The notes: generated by a model not told the origin, from the sequence alone. Shown: positions 51 to 7,311, counted from the stretch's first letter. The stretch: DNA of 7,311 nucleotides from a virus (IMGVR_UViG_2541047433_000022), one strand, 5' to 3'. A program made the numbers and translations.

Positions 51-605
51 TCAAAAAGCAATAACTTTTTTCTCTATACCAAAAGCCATAACCATTGGTT
101 TGTACAAAATAAATTCTGCCACCTTTAGCCAATGCTCAATGCGTCTTTCACAGGTTCTTAAACTCCATTCCGGATGTGCATCATTCAGCAGTTCAGCCAT
201 TTTGCGCTTAGTCATCCCCCGCCCCACATAACGCTGACTCAGAACATTGAGCAGCCCGGGATAACCTGCCAGTACTTCACCAATAACCCTGTCGATTATT
301 AACGCCTCTGAATCGGTACAATGCACCAGCCAGCTTTTTTGCTTGCCGTTGATCATATCCCGCAAAAAAGCCTCAAGTTTAGGTTTGTCCAGACCTGCTT
401 TTTTCATCCTCCGGAGCGCCTCGTTAATTGCCGTTTTTGTCAGCTTTTTAGAGGTCAGCAACTGGTTGAACATATTTCCCGTCTTACCGCCGCCAATATA
501 CGACCAGCGCCCCCACATACGTAGTTTCCCCTGAATCCAGACACTTTCCAGCGTGGTGAGACGAAGGTGCTCTCCGCTTTTTCCTGTGTTCGTTGGGTAA
601 ATCAT
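51..605 (-). CDS. Putative lambdoid late-gene antiterminator (Q-like) or other nin-region protein, 184 aa
   Basis: Listed ORF 51..725 trimmed to the ATG at 603-605, which forms an ATGA start/stop overlap with the upstream gene (stop 602-604) and follows an AAGGA/GGAG Shine-Dalgarno (revcomp of 612-624). Product is inferred from position (last, tightly coupled gene after DUF1367/DUF1364-type genes) and from memory of the family; not verified by search. Confidence 0.4.
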   Translation of the reverse strand: MIYPTNTGKSGEHLRLTTLESVWIQGKLRMWGRWSYIGGGKTGNMFNQLLTSKKLTKTAINEALRRMKKAGLDKPKLEAFLRDMINGKQKSWLVHCTDSEALIIDRVIGEVLAGYPGLLNVLSQRYVGRGMTKRKMAELLNDAHPEWSLRTCERRIEHWLKVAEFILYKPMVMAFGIEKKVIAF

Positions 606-892
606 AAATAACCGTCCTTTCTCCAGATCTCTTGTGTGCGAAAAACACCTTCTGCATGCATCAGGCGCAATTCTTCTTTGGTGTAATCGCTGGTTTTTAC
701 TCTCCCGTCGATTAAATCGTGGCATGAGTTACAGGCAATCGCTGCCTGCATATCGTGTGGCTTTATCGCTGTTCCGCACGTTCCCGCCAGCCTGTAATGC
801 GCCAGCACAGAGGTTTCGGGATTGTGATTGCAGTAGCCAGGGATTCTGATCTGGCATATCTGGCCTTTAGCCGCTTTACGTAAATTCACCAT
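602..892 (-). CDS. DUF1364 / YbcO-like Cys-rich putative zinc-binding phage protein (putative nuclease), 96 aa
   Basis: Minus-strand ORF with five Cys (C13, C21, C39, C54, C57) plus His in a pattern I recognise as YbcO/DUF1364-like. TAATG stop/start overlap with the upstream gene at 890-894 indicates translational coupling. Confidence 0.6.
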   Translation of the reverse strand: MVNLRKAAKGQICQIRIPGYCNHNPETSVLAHYRLAGTCGTAIKPHDMQAAIACNSCHDLIDGRVKTSDYTKEELRLMHAEGVFRTQEIWRKDGYL

Positions 893-1491
893 TACGCAAA
901 CTCCAGTAGTTGTGCGGCCACATTTTCAACTTCCTCCTGAGAGGAGAATTTACGGAACAGAATCCAGTTCCACAGCACATTCAGTACAGATTTATAAACC
1001 TGCTGAAACTCGACTTCGTCCATATTCGCAAAAGCGATGGATTTTGCCCGACGCCCACGGCTACCGTCCGGATAAATATGCTCGGTGTAAAATCCGGCCT
1101 GAATGGTTACCCACTCGCGGAAAGCCTCAAACGACTTTAGCAACGCCGTATCCCGGGTTCTACGAGTCGCAACGGTGTTAAGGTATTGCTCTGCGGCATC
1201 ACTCAGGGCTGGCGTGTGTTCCCGACCAACTGATTCGCACAGGTAATCAACGAAACCAGACAGCAGTTCTCGTTCGCGAGGCGTGATCGCCCCACCGACC
1301 GGAGTCCAGTAATCGAATCCCAGTTGCAGGAGTTTGAAAAAACGCTTGTGGAATGCGTAGTTACGCACACGCTTAAAATCTGCGTGTATCCACTCACCTA
1401 TTTTGATTTGATGCAGAAAATCGCAACTCTCCGGCGTCGCCGGGAGAAGTAAACCAGAAGAAGTTTGTTTGACCAGTTGTATATGCGCCAT
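892..1491 (-). CDS. DUF1367-family lambdoid nin-region protein, 199 aa
   Basis: Minus-strand ORF, ATG at 1489-1491 preceded by GAGAGATTGAGAA. The sequence (...FFKLLQLGFDYWTPVGG...) resembles DUF1367 proteins found next to DUF1364 and Q genes in enterobacterial prophages. About 53% G+C in a sampled block. Confidence 0.5.
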   Translation of the reverse strand: MAHIQLVKQTSSGLLLPATPESCDFLHQIKIGEWIHADFKRVRNYAFHKRFFKLLQLGFDYWTPVGGAITPRERELLSGFVDYLCESVGREHTPALSDAAEQYLNTVATRRTRDTALLKSFEAFREWVTIQAGFYTEHIYPDGSRGRRAKSIAFANMDEVEFQQVYKSVLNVLWNWILFRKFSSQEEVENVAAQLLEFA

Positions 1492-1910
1492 TTCTCAATC
1501 TCTCGATGGCGCAGTGCAGCAGATGCCAGTTGTTCAAGCTAGCACGCAAATTGTAAACCAGAATGCCAGGAAAAAACAAAACCCGCCGAAGCTGGTTGTG
1601 TGCGGTTGCGTTGAAGTCTCCTAGCCAAAGAGTAGCGGTGACCACTCCCCGCCGATAATCTTAGTTGTTTAATTTCGTAAGCTAACTAGGCTAAAAGCTC
1701 TCTGTTGTCTGCCTGTTGTACAATTAACAAAATGAACAACGAACTAGATATACCAACGCCAGAATGGTGCAACAAATCCCAAACAACACAGCAATGCAAC
1801 AATAACATATGTTATTTTCCTCTCACGGGATTCAGTCCTGAATTCTCATAAAGCTAATCTTTTTTTAAAAACATACTGTTAGATCACATGCACTTTCTTT
1901 CTTAACATCG

Positions 1911-1938
1911 TTGACTTCGCATGCGAAGCGTTTAAAAT
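1911..1938 (+). promoter_or_regulatory. Sigma70-type promoter for the ATPase operon: -35 TTGACT (1911-1916), 16-nt spacer, -10 TAAAAT (1933-1938)
   Basis: Hexamers read directly from the sequence. The predicted start site near 1945 leaves a ~45-nt leader before AGAGAG (1979-1984) and the ATG at 1991. Confidence 0.45.
1915..1928. promoter_or_regulatory. Perfect 14-bp palindrome CTTCGCATGCGAAG overlapping the -35 and filling the spacer; candidate operator
   Basis: The sequence is identical to its reverse complement. Its position inside the promoter is the classic place for a repressor site. No regulator gene was identified in the window. Confidence 0.45.
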
Positions 1939-1990
1939 CAACAATTTGCACTTAAGGTATTTATTTTCCCAAACACATAGAGAGTAAATT

Positions 1991-3382
1991 ATGACTGAGA
2001 ACACGACTCCAACAGCAGACTTTAGTCCTAGTAAAAGATTTTTTGTAAGTATGCTAACTCGAGATATCGACTTAAACGATGCCATACTTGATCTGCTTGA
2101 TAACTGCGTCGATGGGGCTTTACGTACAATAAAAGACACAAAAAAAACTTCAAAACCATATGAAGGATTTTATGCGAAACTTACGATTAATAAAGATGTC
2201 TTTATTATAGAAGACAATTGCGGAGGTATCCCTAAAAGCTTCCGAGAATATGCTTTTAAAATGGGACGACCCCATCAAAAAGAAGAAGAAAATGAAGGCA
2301 CCGTTGGCGTCTATGGTATTGGTATGAAAAGAGCCATTTTTAAAATGGGTAGAGATTGCTCAATACAATCGAATAATCCCGATGGCGCATTCACTGTAGA
2401 TATAACACCTGATTGGATCGATGGTGATGGTTGGAAAATACCGATGCACGAGAGTGACTATGATAACAAAAATCCAACAGGCACAACTATAGAGATAAAA
2501 AAACTCCATTCTAATGTGGCACAAAAATTTAATGAGAGCACATATCTTACTGATCTCTTTTTACAGATAAAACACTCATTGTCATTTATTATTCAAAAAG
2601 GATTTAAAATAGAATTAAATGGAGTTGTTGTTGAACATAATCCGATTAACATCATAACTGATCATTCTAAAATAGAACCATACATATATAAAGCTAAAAT
2701 AGACGATGTTGATATCGATTTAGTTGTTGGCTTCTATAAAAATTTAGAAGATGACAATGATGATGTTTTAGAAAAAAGGAGTTCTGATGATGCTGGATGG
2801 ACTGTCATTTGCAATGACCGCGTTGTTCTATATTGTGATAAGACACATCTCACAGGTTGGGGCTTTGCTAATGTACCAAGGTTTCATACCCAATTTATAG
2901 CAATTTCTGGGGTTGTTCGCTTTACCAGTAAAAACCCAGAAAAATTACCAATAACAACAACGAAACGAGGTGTCGATCTTAGTTCTACATTGTACAATGA
3001 TGTACGAAATAAAATGATTGAAGGGATGATGCATTTTATTCGATTCACCAATCAGTGGAAAGGTGAGCATCTTGAAGAAGGGAAAAAATTACTTAAGTCA
3101 GCTCAGTCACATGAAGCTCAATCTTTATTTGAAATTACCCCACAATCAACTCCAGAAGATAAAAAAAATAACTGGTCCAACCCTAATAGAAACAAAAATG
3201 AGTGGCGATATACACCTAAGCTGCCTACCCCAGTAAAAAAAAGCTCTACTGTACGAATAATCTTCACCAGAGAGAAAGAAGATGTTAAAATTTTATCTAA
3301 ATATTTCTTTGGACATGAAGATGCTAGCGCTTCTGATGTGGGGATGCAATGCTTTGATACGGTGATTGAAGAGGTGAAGTGA
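1991..3382 (+). CDS. GHKL (Bergerat-fold) ATPase, MutL/MORC-like (HATPase_c_3-type) N-terminal domain with an unassigned C-terminal half, 463 aa
   Basis: Three motifs in canonical order: N-box ILDLLDNCVDGA (aa 33-43, nt 2087-2119), G1 box IEDNCGGIP (aa 73-81, nt 2207-2233; compare MutL DNGCGI) and G2 box GVYGIGMKRAIF (aa 106-117, nt 2306-2341). No membrane segment or histidine-kinase dimerisation region precedes the ATPase domain. The C-terminus is Lys/Asn-rich. Confidence 0.8.
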   Translation: MTENTTPTADFSPSKRFFVSMLTRDIDLNDAILDLLDNCVDGALRTIKDTKKTSKPYEGFYAKLTINKDVFIIEDNCGGIPKSFREYAFKMGRPHQKEEENEGTVGVYGIGMKRAIFKMGRDCSIQSNNPDGAFTVDITPDWIDGDGWKIPMHESDYDNKNPTGTTIEIKKLHSNVAQKFNESTYLTDLFLQIKHSLSFIIQKGFKIELNGVVVEHNPINIITDHSKIEPYIYKAKIDDVDIDLVVGFYKNLEDDNDDVLEKRSSDDAGWTVICNDRVVLYCDKTHLTGWGFANVPRFHTQFIAISGVVRFTSKNPEKLPITTTKRGVDLSSTLYNDVRNKMIEGMMHFIRFTNQWKGEHLEEGKKLLKSAQSHEAQSLFEITPQSTPEDKKNNWSNPNRNKNEWRYTPKLPTPVKKSSTVRIIFTREKEDVKILSKYFFGHEDASASDVGMQCFDTVIEEVK

Positions 3383-4371
3383 TGTCTGGACAATACATTC
3401 CCTATCACTTAAGGCATAATAAGTCTATTGATAGAGAGATTTTTCTCGAAAGCCTAAACCTCTTAAGCAAAAGACTAAATATTCAAGAATATACATATAT
3501 AGGTTTTGGTGGTCCGATGCTTGAAGATTTTAGAATCATGCATAATCGTATCGCTCTTTCTGATATGATTTCTCTCGAAGAACAAGAGTCTACTCACATC
3601 AGACAAAAATATAATTTGCCTTATAATTGTATTGATTGTAAGCTAATATCAGCTCATGACTTTATTCTTGATTATAGTTTTTCTAAACCATCAATAACAT
3701 GGTTAGACTATGCCTCCCCGAAAAAAATACAAACGGATCTAGATGATATACACTTACTAAGTACTAAAGTAAGCTCTTTTGATATTTTGAAGGTCACCTT
3801 CCCCATAAATCCTAGTTCTTATTACCAACGTAGAGTTGGAGAAAGTTTAGATATTTTTAAAGAAGCTTTTATTAATTCATTAAAATCATTGCTTGGGAAA
3901 AAGTATCTTGATTTTAATCTTCAGATATCAAATGCAGATCTTTCAGATCGTAAGATTAAAGCTCTTTTAATACGAATTATTACAAACGCTTTTAGATCAG
4001 CAATAGAACGTGGTCTTTCAGGACGTAAGGATAAGATTCAGTATTACCCATTATCCTTAAATCAATATAATGATGGCAGTCATACCATGTTGACAATATC
4101 AGGTTTTTTCTCCTCAGAACAAGAATATATAGAGTTATCTAAGGCATGCGACCTTTCTAACTGGCAATTTTATTCAACAAATTGGGAAGACGTGCAAGAA
4201 ATAGCAATACCAACACTAACAATTAAAGAAAAGATAAATTTAGATAGTAAACTGCCTGATAAAGAAGCATATCAGGCAGCCGCTGAAGAGTTCTCTTTAA
4301 ACGAAAATGAACGGGATAACTATTATAAATACTATAGGTTATACCCTAACTTCCAAAGAATTATGGTTTAA
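3382..4371 (+). CDS. Hypothetical protein, 329 aa, operon partner of the GHKL ATPase; function unknown (candidate effector)
   Basis: The ORF track starts at GTG 3379, but ATG 3382-3384 overlaps the ATPase stop (TGATG, 3380-3384), so the two genes are translationally coupled. Same ~30% G+C as the ATPase gene. I found no clear PD-(D/E)xK, HNH, HEPN or Walker motif by eye. Confidence 0.7.
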   Translation: MSGQYIPYHLRHNKSIDREIFLESLNLLSKRLNIQEYTYIGFGGPMLEDFRIMHNRIALSDMISLEEQESTHIRQKYNLPYNCIDCKLISAHDFILDYSFSKPSITWLDYASPKKIQTDLDDIHLLSTKVSSFDILKVTFPINPSSYYQRRVGESLDIFKEAFINSLKSLLGKKYLDFNLQISNADLSDRKIKALLIRIITNAFRSAIERGLSGRKDKIQYYPLSLNQYNDGSHTMLTISGFFSSEQEYIELSKACDLSNWQFYSTNWEDVQEIAIPTLTIKEKINLDSKLPDKEAYQAAAEEFSLNENERDNYYKYYRLYPNFQRIMV

Positions 4372-5490
4372 ATATTCGGGCTGTACTCTTTTATTTAATA
4401 AATTGTACAGCCCCTTTAATATATATTCAGCAACTATTGGTGACACGCTATTTCCTATTTGTCTGAAACTATGCCATTTAGTTACATGAAAGCGAAACCA
4501 ATCAGGGAAGCCTTGTAATCTAGCAGCTTCTCTTGGTGTAATCACTCTTGGATGATAAGGGTGGATCGGCCTGACGGCTTGAAAGCTTCCTTTATCTCTA
4601 GCGGTTCCCGCCCTTAAAGTCGGGCAAAAACCATTTGGATCTAATCTTGTAGATCTTGAAATTTTATCAGTTTCCCCAAAAGATAAGGAAGCATAACGCT
4701 CTTGGACGATTTTGCTATGTAATGTTCCGGTACATCCAGATATGATATTATTTTTTAACTTAGCGATCGATTCTGTATCACCAACATTCCGAGGGATCTG
4801 CCCCCATAATTTTTCATAAAATCCCCCTTTTCGATCTTTTTTAATTGTTCGCCAACTCTCAGAGTCTGATTGCCAATTGGCATCGATAATATCTGGTAAT
4901 CCATACAAAGCATCTTTTACAGTAACCGGATCAATCATTTTAGGCATAAATACTTCATCTGAAATATCAAGCTTCAATGATTTTTTTACACCGATAAAAA
5001 AATATCTAGTTCGAATAGTTGGAGCACCATAATCAGATGCTTTTACCTTGATGGGATCAAGAATATCATAATCACCGCTAACCAAATTAAATGCTTTATT
5101 TCTAATGCCAGAATATTTCTCTTGCATAATACCTGGAACATTTTCTGCCAAAAAGAATAATGGCTGTAATTCTGATACTAAACGGTAGAAATGCATGTAA
5201 AGCTGATTCCTGCTATCATCAGGATTCCCCTTGCCTATTGAACTAAATCCTTGGCACGGAGGACCGCCAATAATACCATCTATGGGCATATCGTTTTTAA
5301 AAAAACCCTTAATTATTTCTGCATTTAGTAAAGAAACATCTTCTTGGACGTGCAAACTTCTTGGAAAATTAATTGCGTGAGTATTAATAGCATGTTGATC
5401 AATTTCAACTGCCATTTTAACATCAAATCCAGCACGTGCAGCACCAAGACTTAGACCTCCAACGCCAGAAAACAAATCTATTACATTCAT
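4339..5490 (-). CDS. DNA (cytosine-5)-methyltransferase, 383 aa
   Basis: Canonical motifs in order: I DLFSGVGG (aa 5-12, nt 5455-5478), IV GGPPCQGFS (PCQ = aa 78-80, nt 5251-5259), VI FLAENVPG (ENV = aa 116-118) and X QIGNSVSP near the C-terminus. A variable target-recognition region lies between VIII and IX. The 3' end overlaps the partner gene by 33 bp (4339-4371). Confidence 0.9.
   Translation of the reverse strand: MNVIDLFSGVGGLSLGAARAGFDVKMAVEIDQHAINTHAINFPRSLHVQEDVSLLNAEIIKGFFKNDMPIDGIIGGPPCQGFSSIGKGNPDDSRNQLYMHFYRLVSELQPLFFLAENVPGIMQEKYSGIRNKAFNLVSGDYDILDPIKVKASDYGAPTIRTRYFFIGVKKSLKLDISDEVFMPKMIDPVTVKDALYGLPDIIDANWQSDSESWRTIKKDRKGGFYEKLWGQIPRNVGDTESIAKLKNNIISGCTGTLHSKIVQERYASLSFGETDKISRSTRLDPNGFCPTLRAGTARDKGSFQAVRPIHPYHPRVITPREAARLQGFPDWFRFHVTKWHSFRQIGNSVSPIVAEYILKGLYNLLNKRVQPEYLNHNSLEVRV
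4378..4413 (+). terminator. Hairpin (9-bp stem GGGCTGTAC / GTACAGCCC, 18-nt AT-rich loop) followed by CTTTAATATATATT; possible terminator of the plus-strand operon
   Basis: Inverted repeat read directly, 7 nt after the partner stop codon. It lies inside the last codons of the convergent MTase gene. The long loop and interrupted T-tract make it a weak terminator candidate. Confidence 0.3.
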
Positions 5491-5522
5491 ATAGTTGCAA
5501 CGTCTCTTATTAGTTTCTATGT

Positions 5523-5531
5523 ATTATAACA
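5523..5531 (-). promoter_or_regulatory. Extended -10 promoter element (TGT-TATAAT on the minus strand) upstream of the MTase gene
   Basis: Revcomp of 5523-5528 is TATAAT and is preceded by TGT (5529-5531). It sits ~32 nt upstream of the MTase ATG (5488-5490), with AAGAGA as a weak ribosome-binding site. No good -35 is present, which is consistent with an extended -10 promoter. Confidence 0.35.
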
Positions 5532-5742
5532 CAACTGTTCTTGATGTTTTAACCCCATAAGATAACCTCATAAAGGCTATCCCTTGAAAATACCGGATCG
5601 CATAAATTTAATCTTTCAAAACTACTTGTCTATTAATCGAGCAATTTAAGGTTGTTTTAGTCATGTCGATACCGACATAGTTAACTAAACCCATTTCATC
5701 GTCCAACAAATGGGGGTAATACACTTTGATTTATAGTCGGGT

Positions 5743-5778
5743 GGGTTTTTCTCTATCTGCCTTTGGTGTTCATGCCCA
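5743..5778. repeat. Perfect 11-bp inverted repeat CTATCTGCCTT / AAGGCAGATAG with a 14-nt loop at the right border of the low-GC insert
   Basis: Read directly from the sequence. It is not followed by a U-tract on either strand, so it is not a typical intrinsic terminator. Function unknown. Confidence 0.5.
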
Positions 5779-5921
5779 AGGCAGATAGCCTCAAGCACCC
5801 GCAGCAATTCTACTTAACTCTCCTTTTCCCGCAAACCGTTTTTATCTCCAGCGACAAATCGAATACACAACCAGCACCACCGCCATTACTGTTCCTACAT
5901 TTGCGAATGCTTCAGGCCAGG

Positions 5922-6317
5922 TCATTGATTCACCTTCTGCTCAATATTTTTAAGGTCATTTTCCGCATACAGTATTGCAGTTCTTGCTGCCCGCAACCGT
6001 GCTTTGGTGTTCTTTTCTTCACGCTCGAGGCTGGCAACAGATTCTCGGAGCTGATCGTGTCTGTTATGAAGCTGTCTAATCTCTCTCACCACAGCCTCAC
6101 CATCGTTCGCACACCGCAGAACATACTGAAAAGGGTCCACAACACATCCGCACTGCAAGCACAGGATAACGTGATCCTGTTCATGAACCTCAATGGCCCG
6201 ATGCTTACAGCTCTGTTGTGTGTAGTTTTTTCTGCCAGTTACTGTAATGTTCAGCAGCTTCTCTTCATCGCGCTTTGGCTGCACCAGTGTGATGATATTA
6301 TCGCCTTCATTTTCCAT
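5922..6317 (-). CDS. Hypothetical phage protein, 131 aa, with a Cys cluster (possible zinc ribbon) and C-terminal coiled-coil-like region
   Basis: Listed ORF 5922..6392 trimmed to the ATG at 6315-6317, which overlaps the upstream stop (TGATG) and follows a perfect AGGAGGT (revcomp of 6324-6330). Cys pattern: SCKH...ILCLQCGC...LRCAND. Confidence 0.6.
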   Translation of the reverse strand: MENEGDNIITLVQPKRDEEKLLNITVTGRKNYTQQSCKHRAIEVHEQDHVILCLQCGCVVDPFQYVLRCANDGEAVVREIRQLHNRHDQLRESVASLEREEKNTKARLRAARTAILYAENDLKNIEQKVNQ

Positions 6318-6976
6318 CAGTTCACCTCCTGCGGCGGTTCTGGTAGCGGCATCCAGTGTGACGGTTTCCACGACGCACCAGGAATTATCCACCCATCATT
6401 AGCGTCAGGATGCCCCGGGATGTAAGTCGCCCACTTCATTCGCCAGTCACCTTTCCTGTCAAACTCCACGGCAACAAGAACGGCTGTTTTGGTATCCGGC
6501 ATTCGCTCACTACAACTTATCCAACCATCCGGAGTTACCGGAGAGTTGCCAGACAGCGCATTCTGCAACCGTTCCAGCTTAACGTATTCCTGAACCCTGT
6601 TTCCGTCGCACGCCTGAAGCCATTGCTCAGCCTTTTGCGCATCAGTGTGAAAGGCACAAGTGCGACCGTCATCAAATTGCATTTCGTAGAGGTTAGCAAT
6701 CTGTTCAAACTGCGTGTGTGGCAACTTGTAAGTTTGGCTTACGAGTTCGGCTTCCAGTTCTGCTATGCGCTTCTCTGATGCTTCAAGTAACGCCTGCTTA
6801 TCGCGTAGCGCTTCTTCCAGTTCAGCAACATGGCATTCACTATCAATAAGGTTGTTCTCTGCTGCTCCCAGCTCAACTCTCAGCTTCCCAACCGTAAGCG
6901 CAATCTCCTCGTTCTCCTGGTCGCGGCGTTTGATGTATTGCTGGTTTCTTTCCCGTTCATCCAGCAGTTCCAGCAC
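6317..6976 (-). CDS. C-terminal part of an Ead/Ea22-like protein with a DUF551-type end (...SHWMPLPEPP), 219 aa as listed
   Basis: The listed start is a GTG. The same frame stays open upstream to 7033 and reads ...NAEFIAEANPATVLELLDE, which looks like genuine protein sequence. Coiled-coil-like heptads (AELEEALRDKQALLEASEKRIAELEAEL) precede the conserved W/P-rich C-terminus. Confidence 0.5.
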   Translation of the reverse strand: MLELLDERERNQQYIKRRDQENEEIALTVGKLRVELGAAENNLIDSECHVAELEEALRDKQALLEASEKRIAELEAELVSQTYKLPHTQFEQIANLYEMQFDDGRTCAFHTDAQKAEQWLQACDGNRVQEYVKLERLQNALSGNSPVTPDGWISCSERMPDTKTAVLVAVEFDRKGDWRMKWATYIPGHPDANDGWIIPGASWKPSHWMPLPEPPQEVN

Positions 6977-6996
6977 GGTAGCCGGGTTAGCCTCTG

Positions 6997-7215
6997 CTAT
7001 GAATTCAGCGTTGCATAAGCCTGAGCATCTGTTTCAACCAGGCAGTTAACATGACATTCTGCAATCACGCCACCGGGTTCTCCTTTCCATTTTTGGCAAA
7101 CAAAAACTCCTGTTAAATTGCCGTGCTGGTTAACAGATGTATGCCCTACGATGTAGCTTCCTTTAGTTGCTTTCTCTGCCTTTTCACGCAGTGCCTGATA
7201 GTCAATCTTGCTCAT
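6997..7215 (-). CDS. N-terminal Ead/Ea22-like segment (MSKIDYQALREKAEKATKG...), 72 aa; probably the 5' part of the downstream gene, separated by a frameshift
   Basis: ATG at 7213-7215 preceded by GGAGTGAAGAGAAAA. The listed ORF starts 8 codons earlier (7239) without a ribosome-binding site. It ends at TAG 6997-6999, one base out of frame with the 6317-7033 reading frame. Confidence 0.45.
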   Translation of the reverse strand: MSKIDYQALREKAEKATKGSYIVGHTSVNQHGNLTGVFVCQKWKGEPGGVIAECHVNCLVETDAQAYATLNS

Positions 7216-7311
7216 TTTTCTCTTCACTCCGGTATACAAGGATTACTACGCCCCCTCTGCTAATTGCGCGAGCTGGATCCCCTGGTTCCATGCCGTCAAT
7301 ACCGAAGGCTT

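Follow-up and report, generated by a model that had tools for sequence, protein, structure and literature searches.

We analysed a stretch of viral DNA of 7,311 nucleotides (IMGVR_UViG_2541047433_000022; hereafter the window, meaning the whole stretch) that carries a G+C-poor islet of three genes between two blocks of phage genes. The islet corresponds to ECs_1953-1955 of the lambdoid prophage Sp10/CP-933R of Escherichia coli O157:H7. Two of its genes lie in tandem: one encodes a MORC-like ATPase of the GHKL type with an S5-fold domain, the other a protein of Pfam family PF20553 (Methyltransf_35) with the fold of a class I S-adenosylmethionine (SAM)-dependent methyltransferase. The third gene, convergent with them, encodes a C5 DNA methylase. 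Catalytic motifs are intact in all three proteins, and Pfam, PADLOC and structure searches detect no nuclease family or fold in any of them. On balance, we read the islet as a mobile cassette for self/non-self defence or addiction that is based on 5-methylcytosine (5mC) and resembles a restriction-modification (R-M) system. The features of the window are collected in Table 1.

Table 1. Genes and non-coding features of the window, in order of position
Feature	Coordinates	Strand	Remarks
DUF1367, YbcO and Q-type antiterminator/DUF1133 genes	51-1491	-	Left flank phage genes
Remnant of the 3' end of a hok mRNA locus	1578-1614	-	Terminator hairpin AAAACCCGCCGAAGC..GGTT; left homology junction
Non-coding leader of the ATPase gene	1615-1990	+	Islet-specific; without DNA homology to other cassettes or hok loci
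MORC-like GHKL+S5 ATPase, 463 aa	1991-3382	+	HATPase_c_3 match above cut-off
PF20553 (Methyltransf_35) protein, 329 aa	3382-4371	+	Class I SAM-methyltransferase fold
C5 DNA methylase, 383 aa	4339-5490	-	PF00145, TIGR00675
Non-coding leader of the methylase gene	5491-5742	-	Islet-specific
Truncated hok/sok regulatory region	5743-5800	-	5' part, about 58 nt; right homology junction
Ead/Ea22 and DUF551 genes	5922-7239	-	Right flank phage genes

Proteins encoded by the islet

In the ATPase, the GHKL motifs D34xxxN38, D75NCGG, G106xYGIGMKR and G164T are invariant or nearly so across 27 homologues. Its S5-fold transducer domain has a conserved basic residue, and Lys325 is invariant in the same homologues within a conserved TTTKRG motif. 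Foldseek searches of the PDB with this protein (AlphaFold2 model with a predicted local distance difference test score, pLDDT, of 83) returned GHKL+S5 proteins only; eukaryotic MORC is the best structural match, MutL is among the structural relatives, and the mostly helical C-terminal tail of the last 110 residues or so found no match. Compared with PDB sequences, the family profile gave marginal MORC3 hits only, and the MORC-specific S5 motif GhXhhpXXRhl is not evident by eye in the alignment. Permissive Pfam scans for weak nuclease or other domains in the 27 homologues recovered noise only. Neither the window nor most related loci contain a superfamily 2 (SF2) helicase and/or nuclease gene beside the ATPase gene. 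Relatives of the ATPase form more than 5,400 clusters at 90% identity (E < 1e-5), a set that probably exceeds its own family.

The start codon of the PF20553 gene overlaps the stop codon of the ATPase gene as TGATG, and the pair is translationally coupled. The protein matches the family profile over positions 1-308 of 309 (300 bits against a cut-off of 27, E = 2e-89), and all 52 diverse homologues also match PF20553. Its model (pLDDT 88.7) shows the seven-stranded sheet of class I methyltransferases, to which a helical insert at residues 145-220 and a helical C-terminal extension are added. Eleven residues are invariant in the 52 homologues (R12, K15, R19, Y40, R75, N79, W108, D110, Y230, M237 and E284) and G44, D50, E67 and Y111 are nearly invariant. 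The conserved residues sit at the C-terminal ends of strands beta1, beta2, beta4 and beta5, the positions at which this fold binds SAM and substrate. The model therefore suggests that the protein likely has a working active site. The nearest structures are ribosomal and transfer RNA (rRNA and tRNA) methyltransferases, for example RsmD, Trm1, RlmI and KsgA; a profile search found no sequence relatives in the PDB. We considered a role similar to that of the Topo VI A subunit and rejected it, as the fold is that of a methyltransferase and not Toprim.

At 50% identity (E ≤ 1e-3), 2,217 clusters make up the PF20553 family. Among the best 150 listed, nearly all are about 330 aa long and show no sign of a fused extra domain, and permissive Pfam scans of the 52 homologues for weak nuclease or other domains again gave noise only. 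The label 'O-methyltransferase' carried by the protein comes from database naming, and no paper in the searchable literature mentions the family.

The methylase matches PF00145 (DNA_methylase) at positions 1-322 of 324 (208 bits against a cut-off of 22, E = 2.6e-61) and TIGR00675 with a score of 157 against a cut-off of 100.65. It is identical to PDB entry 3G7U, which its residues 1-367 match with E = 1.3e-254, and the translation contains GGPPCQGFS (PCQ, motif IV) and AENVPG (ENV, motif VI). It is the only one of the three proteins that PADLOC recognises: it matches MTase_II with E = 2e-98, and the methylase models that it matches include the Druantia and DISARM methylase families. The ATPase and the PF20553 protein have zero hits in PADLOC-DB v2.0.0 at E ≤ 0.01 and no named-family hit in an NCBIfam scan. 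We found no methylome paper on this methylase in the literature.

The convergent methylase and PF20553 genes overlap by 33 nt at their 3' ends (4339-4371). Similar 3' overlaps or abutments are seen in most convergent loci, and the overlap suggests transcriptional interference or antisense control.

The three genes as a conserved unit

We gathered the genomic contexts of PF20553 and ATPase homologues, scanned genome, viral and metagenome collections, and re-annotated the recovered regions uniformly with hidden Markov models, which resulted in 26 distinct loci (L numbers below denote individual loci and contigs, hok/sok loci included). The ATPase and PF20553 genes are adjacent, either abutting or overlapping, in all 26 loci. 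A C5 methylase gene is adjacent in 23 loci, and Vsr is present in nine. The hosts include Leptospira and other spirochaetes, Azoarcus, Smithella, Methylomonas, Gemmatimonadota, Scytonema and several Enterobacterales, a spread over cyanobacteria, spirochaetes, proteobacteria and Gemmatimonadota. Pairwise identities of the proteins co-vary among loci, with r = 0.92 for the ATPase and the PF20553 protein, 0.78 for the ATPase and the methylase, and 0.68 for the PF20553 protein and the methylase.

Some loci depart from the common arrangement. In Enterobacter cloacae (L013/L014, 9208-12249) the pair lies beside a methylase of another lineage, with 44-46% identity, and a second HATPase_c_3 protein of 608 aa is also encoded; this may be a second GHKL-methylase system that shares or replaces the methylase. 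On pSymA of Sinorhizobium meliloti (L072, 3599-14011) the ATPase and PF20553 homologues are about 2.9 kb apart, with a methylase gene and a Vsr-domain gene beyond them, and an insertion may have split the cassette. In an uncultured gammaproteobacterium (L022, 2936-7022) the genes for Vsr, methylase, ATPase and PF20553 protein are all fragmentary, and the whole cassette is decaying. A candidate for a locus without methylase, L011, was rejected: its DNA is identical to that of L012 and the two differ in gene calling.

The neighbourhoods of the cassette include phage accessory regions and defence genes. Diverged cassettes with 53-68% amino-acid identity lie upstream of DUF1367 in Yersinia and other prophages, in the same slot as in the window. 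Neighbouring genes elsewhere encode a McrA-like HNH protein and Abi_2 (L010), type I HsdR (L025), HipA (L019) and integrases (L006, L010).

In Pseudomonas phage PfAC20 (L069, 280-3711) all three genes lie on one strand and fill the accessory end of a filamentous phage, at 43.9% G+C against 59.4% in the rest of the phage. According to the paper on PfAC20, the accessory regions of sister Pf phages contain defence systems; PfAC20 itself is recorded there as 'incomplete RM' by PADLOC, with a lone cytosine methyltransferase. Plasmid pR24_2 of Microvirga terrae (L071, 8745-26738) combines the pair with a complete DISARM system in one hybrid operon, whose co-directional genes encode a helix-turn-helix (HTH) protein, Dcm, Vsr, DrmD, an MmeI-like methylase, the ATPase, the PF20553 protein, DrmA, DrmB and DrmC.

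Composition and borders of the islet

An earlier note on this DNA, made from the sequence alone, described an abrupt drop in G+C over about 4 kb. Sliding windows and exact counts bear out the drop together with its size and coordinates: the profile falls from 0.46-0.55 to 0.29-0.42 between about 1650 and 5700, and exact counts give 48.4% G+C for positions 1-1614, 34.9% for 1615-5742 and 49.3% for 5743-7311. The 53-55% that the note gave for the flanks was too high, the flank mean being 48-49% with 55% reached locally only. Windows of 100 nt range from 22 to 49% within the islet and from 32 to 59% outside it. G+C at third codon positions (GC3) agrees with the drop, at 25-27% in the three islet genes against 50-53% in five flanking phage genes. 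The change points of cumulative compositional deviation, 1654 and 5735, coincide with the breakpoints of homology to related prophages given below.

The same note rightly placed the islet between two same-strand phage gene blocks, both of which are on the minus strand, and its statement that integrase, transposase and clean direct repeats are absent holds within the window. We found no integrase or transposase genes in the window and no terminal or flanking repeats of the islet; the sole islet-spanning repeat is a 12-nt match (1753/5459) that itself lies inside the islet. An integrase- or transposon-mediated island was rejected on the absence of such genes and repeats.

The cassettes of different hosts share DNA similarity only within 1997-5496, that is, in the three genes, and both non-coding arms are peculiar to the E. 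coli version of the cassette. The arms (1615-1990 and 5491-5742) contain no convincing open reading frame (ORF) for a further small gene. A sigma-70-like site, TTGACT-16-TAAAAT, is found at 1911-1938 in the leader before the ATPase gene, and an extended -10 promoter-like site, TTAAAA-18-(TG)TATAAT, at 5552-5523 in the methylase leader; the count of such promoter-like sites is not above chance.

In the left flank, the longest ORF of the Q-like DUF1133 gene (224 aa, 51-725) runs upstream into YbcO. The RefSeq product is 184 aa long (51-605), and its start overlaps the YbcO stop by 4 nt.

Replacement of a hok/sok locus

The cassette slot is an accessory position between the replication genes and the nin genes. 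We looked for the empty site in related prophages that lack the three genes, as the earlier note had proposed, and found a hokD/sok type I toxin-antitoxin locus of roughly 320 bp in its place. This locus occupies the site between DUF1367 and the upstream genes in O157:H7 493/89, KO11FL, EC21Z-101 and VT2-Sakai, and the junctions are near-exact. On the left, the hokD loci L003-L005 align with the window up to about 1614-1640 and are unrelated beyond; on the right, the window is identical to them from exactly 5743 onward. The Rfam sok model RF01794 scores 50.2 bits on 5676-5800, below its gathering score of 59; at the equivalent position in L003-L005, L032, L034 and L036 it matches in full, with 111-114 bits. 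With no hok ORF and a remnant below the Rfam threshold, the window does not count as carrying a hok/sok locus: the hok reading frame is lost, as is most of the sok region. Since ends of hok/sok survive at both borders of the islet, 4.1 kb replaced the core of the locus without target duplication. The retained hok 5' leader points toward the methylase gene.

The prophage background of the window is itself mosaic, with a junction at 5925/5926 near the 3' end of a minus-strand ORF (5922-6392). To the left of it the window matches Sp10/CP-933R at 99.8%; to the right it carries an ead/DUF551 block of the Stx-phage type that is 99.8% identical to VT2-Sakai. We found the entire arrangement in two IMG/VR prophage contigs only (L039 and L040); the 5,426 complete E. 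coli genomes do not contain it. The presence of the whole window in these two contigs indicates that the arrangement is real and that the islet occurs with two different right-hand backgrounds.

Distribution and expression in E. coli

The islet is present in 173 of the 5,426 complete E. coli genomes (O157:H7, O111 and O103). The copies are always single and chromosomal, and at least 99.9% identical. In 172 genomes, which belong to several serotypes, none of the three reading frames is disrupted. At the DNA level the islet is found in none of 50,697 phage genome records. A microarray comparison of 31 O157:H7 strains reported the three cassette genes as specific to lineage I (PMC1890555).

In ordinary cultures of the prophage-carrying strain Sakai, ECs1954 and ECs1955 fall together at the transition to stationary phase (log2 changes of -2.61 and -3.22; PMC2241611). 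On this evidence, cassette genes are transcribed in the lysogen. The islet thus has the features of a moron: it is missing from related phages at this site, deviates in composition, carries promoter-like signals and shows transcript changes in uninduced culture.

The exceptional genome is that of O157:H7 strain F6294 (L027), in which 3751-5782 of the window are lost. The methylase gene is gone, which makes F6294 the sole genome without it, and the C-terminal two thirds of the PF20553 protein are also removed, with the ATPase left intact. In the 143 bp to the right of the deletion, identity to the window is just 91.6%, which points to recombination with a different region of the hok type and not to a simple deletion.

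These distributions bear on what the earlier note had proposed about the origin of the islet. Its view that the three genes were acquired as a unit gains support from their adjacency in 23 of the 26 loci and from the co-varying identities. That the unit travels with the phage agrees with its presence in the 173 E. coli genomes, with the two right-flank backgrounds and with the diverged triads that occupy the equivalent position in Yersinia and other prophages. A low-G+C donor, as suggested there, is not supported. The cassette is at least 5 points poorer in G+C than its flanks in 17 of 22 loci (in Azoarcus, for example, 48.5% against 66.7%), and the enterobacterial cassettes, at 53-68% amino-acid identity, all remain at 34-38% G+C. 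As diverged copies stay G+C-poor, the low G+C is a lasting property of the cassette and is no evidence of a recent donor. The last part of the proposal, that the module protects the lysogen, is so far a reading of gene context, with PADLOC recognising the methylase only and no nuclease detected.

Proposed function

We favour, with some reserve, a 5mC-based defence or addiction cassette, on the combined strength of the R-M layout, the co-diverging proteins, the defence contexts and the moron slots in phages. What the cassette does, how its proteins share the work and each step of the following scheme are inferred from these data. The C5 methylase would mark resident DNA, both the chromosome and the prophage. 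The ATPase and the PF20553 protein would form the discriminating and effector half, acting on DNA without the mark: the PF20553 protein would most likely read the target site in its methyltransferase-type pocket, and a dimer of the ATPase would then clamp or loop the DNA in an ATP-dependent manner. Inactivation might proceed through an active site that neither sequence nor fold reveals, or by recruitment of a nuclease; Vsr would be a candidate in many loci, and DrmC in the version embedded in DISARM.

Several effectors are possible, which we would place in the following order of preference: a catalytic site in the S5 domain, recruitment of Vsr or another nuclease, chemical marking by the PF20553 protein, and clamping or silencing without nuclease. 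The S5 region of the ATPase is very conserved (AGWTxxCNDR, D283, TGWG and H299xQF), and endonuclease activity has been reported for plant MORC1.

The methylase gene runs in the direction of the flanking phage genes, downstream of the hok leader that was retained, and the ATPase-PF20553 operon is antisense to these phage genes. If the early rightward operon runs toward the methylase gene, as gene order suggests, read-through on induction would favour the methylase and oppose the other two genes. Such read-through would suit a phage that needs to methylate its own DNA before packaging.

A number of points weigh against a defence cassette of this kind. Of the components of an R-M system, the adjacent cognate methylase is found in 23 of 26 loci, and an endonuclease component is not found; the E. 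coli cassette also has no Vsr. The PF20553 protein resembles a competent methyltransferase, unlike a classical restriction subunit. The methylase of L013 comes from a different lineage and is the one outlier in the co-divergence. In L024 (Scytonema hofmannii), L063 and L023 the flanks examined contain no methylase gene beside the pair, a surprising situation for a restriction component if the methylase gene does not lie in another part of the genome. The deletion in F6294, which truncates the PF20553 gene along with removing the methylase gene, speaks for the defence reading; as a single event in two overlapping genes it is weak evidence. We found no experiments on this cassette in the searchable literature.

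A form of restriction that dispenses with a nuclease altogether seems to us unlikely: a methyltransferase-fold reader would load a MORC-like ATPase on DNA that lacks 5mC, with silencing or compaction of that DNA or its marking by the PF20553 protein as the result. If true, it would constitute a prokaryotic counterpart, and possibly an ancestor, of eukaryotic MORC silencing coupled to cytosine methylation.

The main rival places the cassette in repair and not in defence. The methylase would serve phage or host as anti-restriction self-protection or as an epigenetic mark, and the ATPase and the PF20553 protein would aid very-short-patch (VSP) repair by locating the T:G mismatches that arise from 5mC deamination at methylase sites and activating Vsr. 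A parallel with MutL in mismatch or VSP repair is drawn by Iyer et al. (2008; PMC2292703). Where Vsr is present, its gene is usually directly upstream of the pair and co-directional with it, not by the methylase (L019, L020, L021, L026 and L061), and for a repair role the pair itself need not contain a nuclease. E. coli MutL stimulates Vsr, and the structural relatives of the ATPase include MutL. This reading is weakened because 17 of the 26 loci, all enterobacterial and prophage copies included, keep the pair without Vsr, and L024 and L063 have the pair with neither methylase nor Vsr. Host Vsr is, moreover, tuned to the host Dcm site, and the placement between DrmMI and DrmA in DISARM, like that in phage moron slots, suits defence better. 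We therefore consider a repair module improbable.

We give a similarly low chance to an abortive-infection or toxin type of system, in which the PF20553 protein would be the effector enzyme, triggered when the ATPase senses unmethylated foreign DNA. It would methylate rRNA or tRNA, or DNA in a damaging manner, and replication or translation would be blocked without cleavage. The complete methyltransferase fold speaks for such an activity, as do the invariant residues at the SAM and substrate site (the G-rich loop after beta1, E67 at the end of beta2 and D110-Y111 at the end of beta4), the proximity to RsmD, Trm1, RlmI and KsgA, and the cassette being free of a recognised nuclease. Passive or selfish cargo, finally, would persist by post-segregational addiction or by hitch-hiking without benefit to the lysogen, or the O157 copy might be inactive. 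The slot formerly held the hok/sok addiction locus, none of the 50,697 phage genomes carries the cassette at the DNA level, and decaying copies exist (the four fragmented genes of L022, and F6294). Against cargo stand the three intact frames at 99.9% identity or more in 172 genomes of several serotypes, the transcription of cassette genes, and a large family with strongly conserved catalytic residues; addiction and defence are, besides, compatible within R-M systems. We regard this explanation as very unlikely.

A 5mC-based defence or addiction cassette would be of consequence in several respects. The cassette is common yet unnamed, and the defence finders in present use list no more than an "orphan" or "incomplete" methylase for it. 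In O157:H7, the uptake of phages and plasmids could be influenced by it. As a compact set of three genes native to the well-studied E. coli strains Sakai and EDL933, with one crystal structure available, it can serve as a model for what MORC-type ATPases of prokaryotes do beside DNA methylation, a question that dates from the prediction of 2008 and bears on the origin of eukaryotic MORC silencing.

Comparison with known systems

Two elements of the cassette are already known: the methylase is of a type with a solved structure, and GHKL ATPases beside methylases exist as a computational prediction. In the searchable literature we found no functional studies on PF20553, the locus tags, 3G7U or bacterial MORC defence. 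Nor did we find there this widespread arrangement of three genes, in which the partner has a methyltransferase fold and a nuclease is missing, or the cassette in lambdoid or Pf prophages or inside DISARM. A C5 methylase of Methylomonas DH-1 specific for TGGCCA improves transformation (PMC7720504) and would be possible indirect evidence if it belonged to the cassette. ARMADA II of EDL933 is a different system.

The closest precedent is the prediction by Iyer, Abhiman and Aravind (2008), who from gene neighbourhoods placed prokaryotic MORC and paraMORC ATPases in R-M systems with cytosine methylases and Vsr and proposed ATP-driven DNA looping (PMC2292703). As far as the available part of that text goes, the shared features are a GHKL+S5 ATPase with intact ATP motifs, a cytosine methylase, often Vsr, and a sporadic, laterally mobile distribution. 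The MORC/paraMORC operons are defined there by an SF2 helicase and/or a nuclease with a restriction endonuclease (RE) fold, HNH or HKD domain, whereas the cassette of the window has neither; its constant partner PF20553 and the nuclease-free version are not described in the same part of the text.

The HEF_HK/Response_reg_2 loci (PMC8011034) are likewise two-gene modules with an N-terminal HATPase_c_3 protein, a C5 methylase and often Vsr, and are also experimentally uncharacterised. Their families PF19191 and PF19192 do not match the proteins of the window, however, and the partner here is PF20553 and not a receiver-like domain. The 608-aa HATPase_c_3 protein of L013 may belong to the HEF_HK type. 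In the slot that it occupies, the cassette is comparable to hokD/sok of lambdoid prophages, which sits at exactly this position in relatives including VT2-Sakai, whereas the window retains only the ends of that locus and no hok frame.

Type II C5 R-M systems with Vsr resemble the cassette in combining a methylase with an adjacent 'R' slot on the opposite strand and an optional Vsr, and in low G+C, mobility and location in prophages or defence islands. The R slot of the cassette, in contrast, holds an ATPase and a methyltransferase-fold protein, with no nuclease and no known or predictable cleavage activity. DISARM (DrmA, DrmB and DrmC with DrmD/DrmMI or DrmE/DrmMII) shares methylation-based discrimination without a classical restriction enzyme, but the window cassette has none of DrmA, DrmB, DrmC, DrmD and DrmE. 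The GHKL-containing Shedu protein VcSduA (paraMORC3; PMC12137116) is a single protein with a C-terminal DUF4263 nuclease of the PD-(D/E)xK type and no methylase, unlike the window ATPase with its helical tail of 110 residues and no nuclease. What VcSduA has in common with the cassette is the GHKL domain, which in this validated anti-phage protein is proposed to control the effector.

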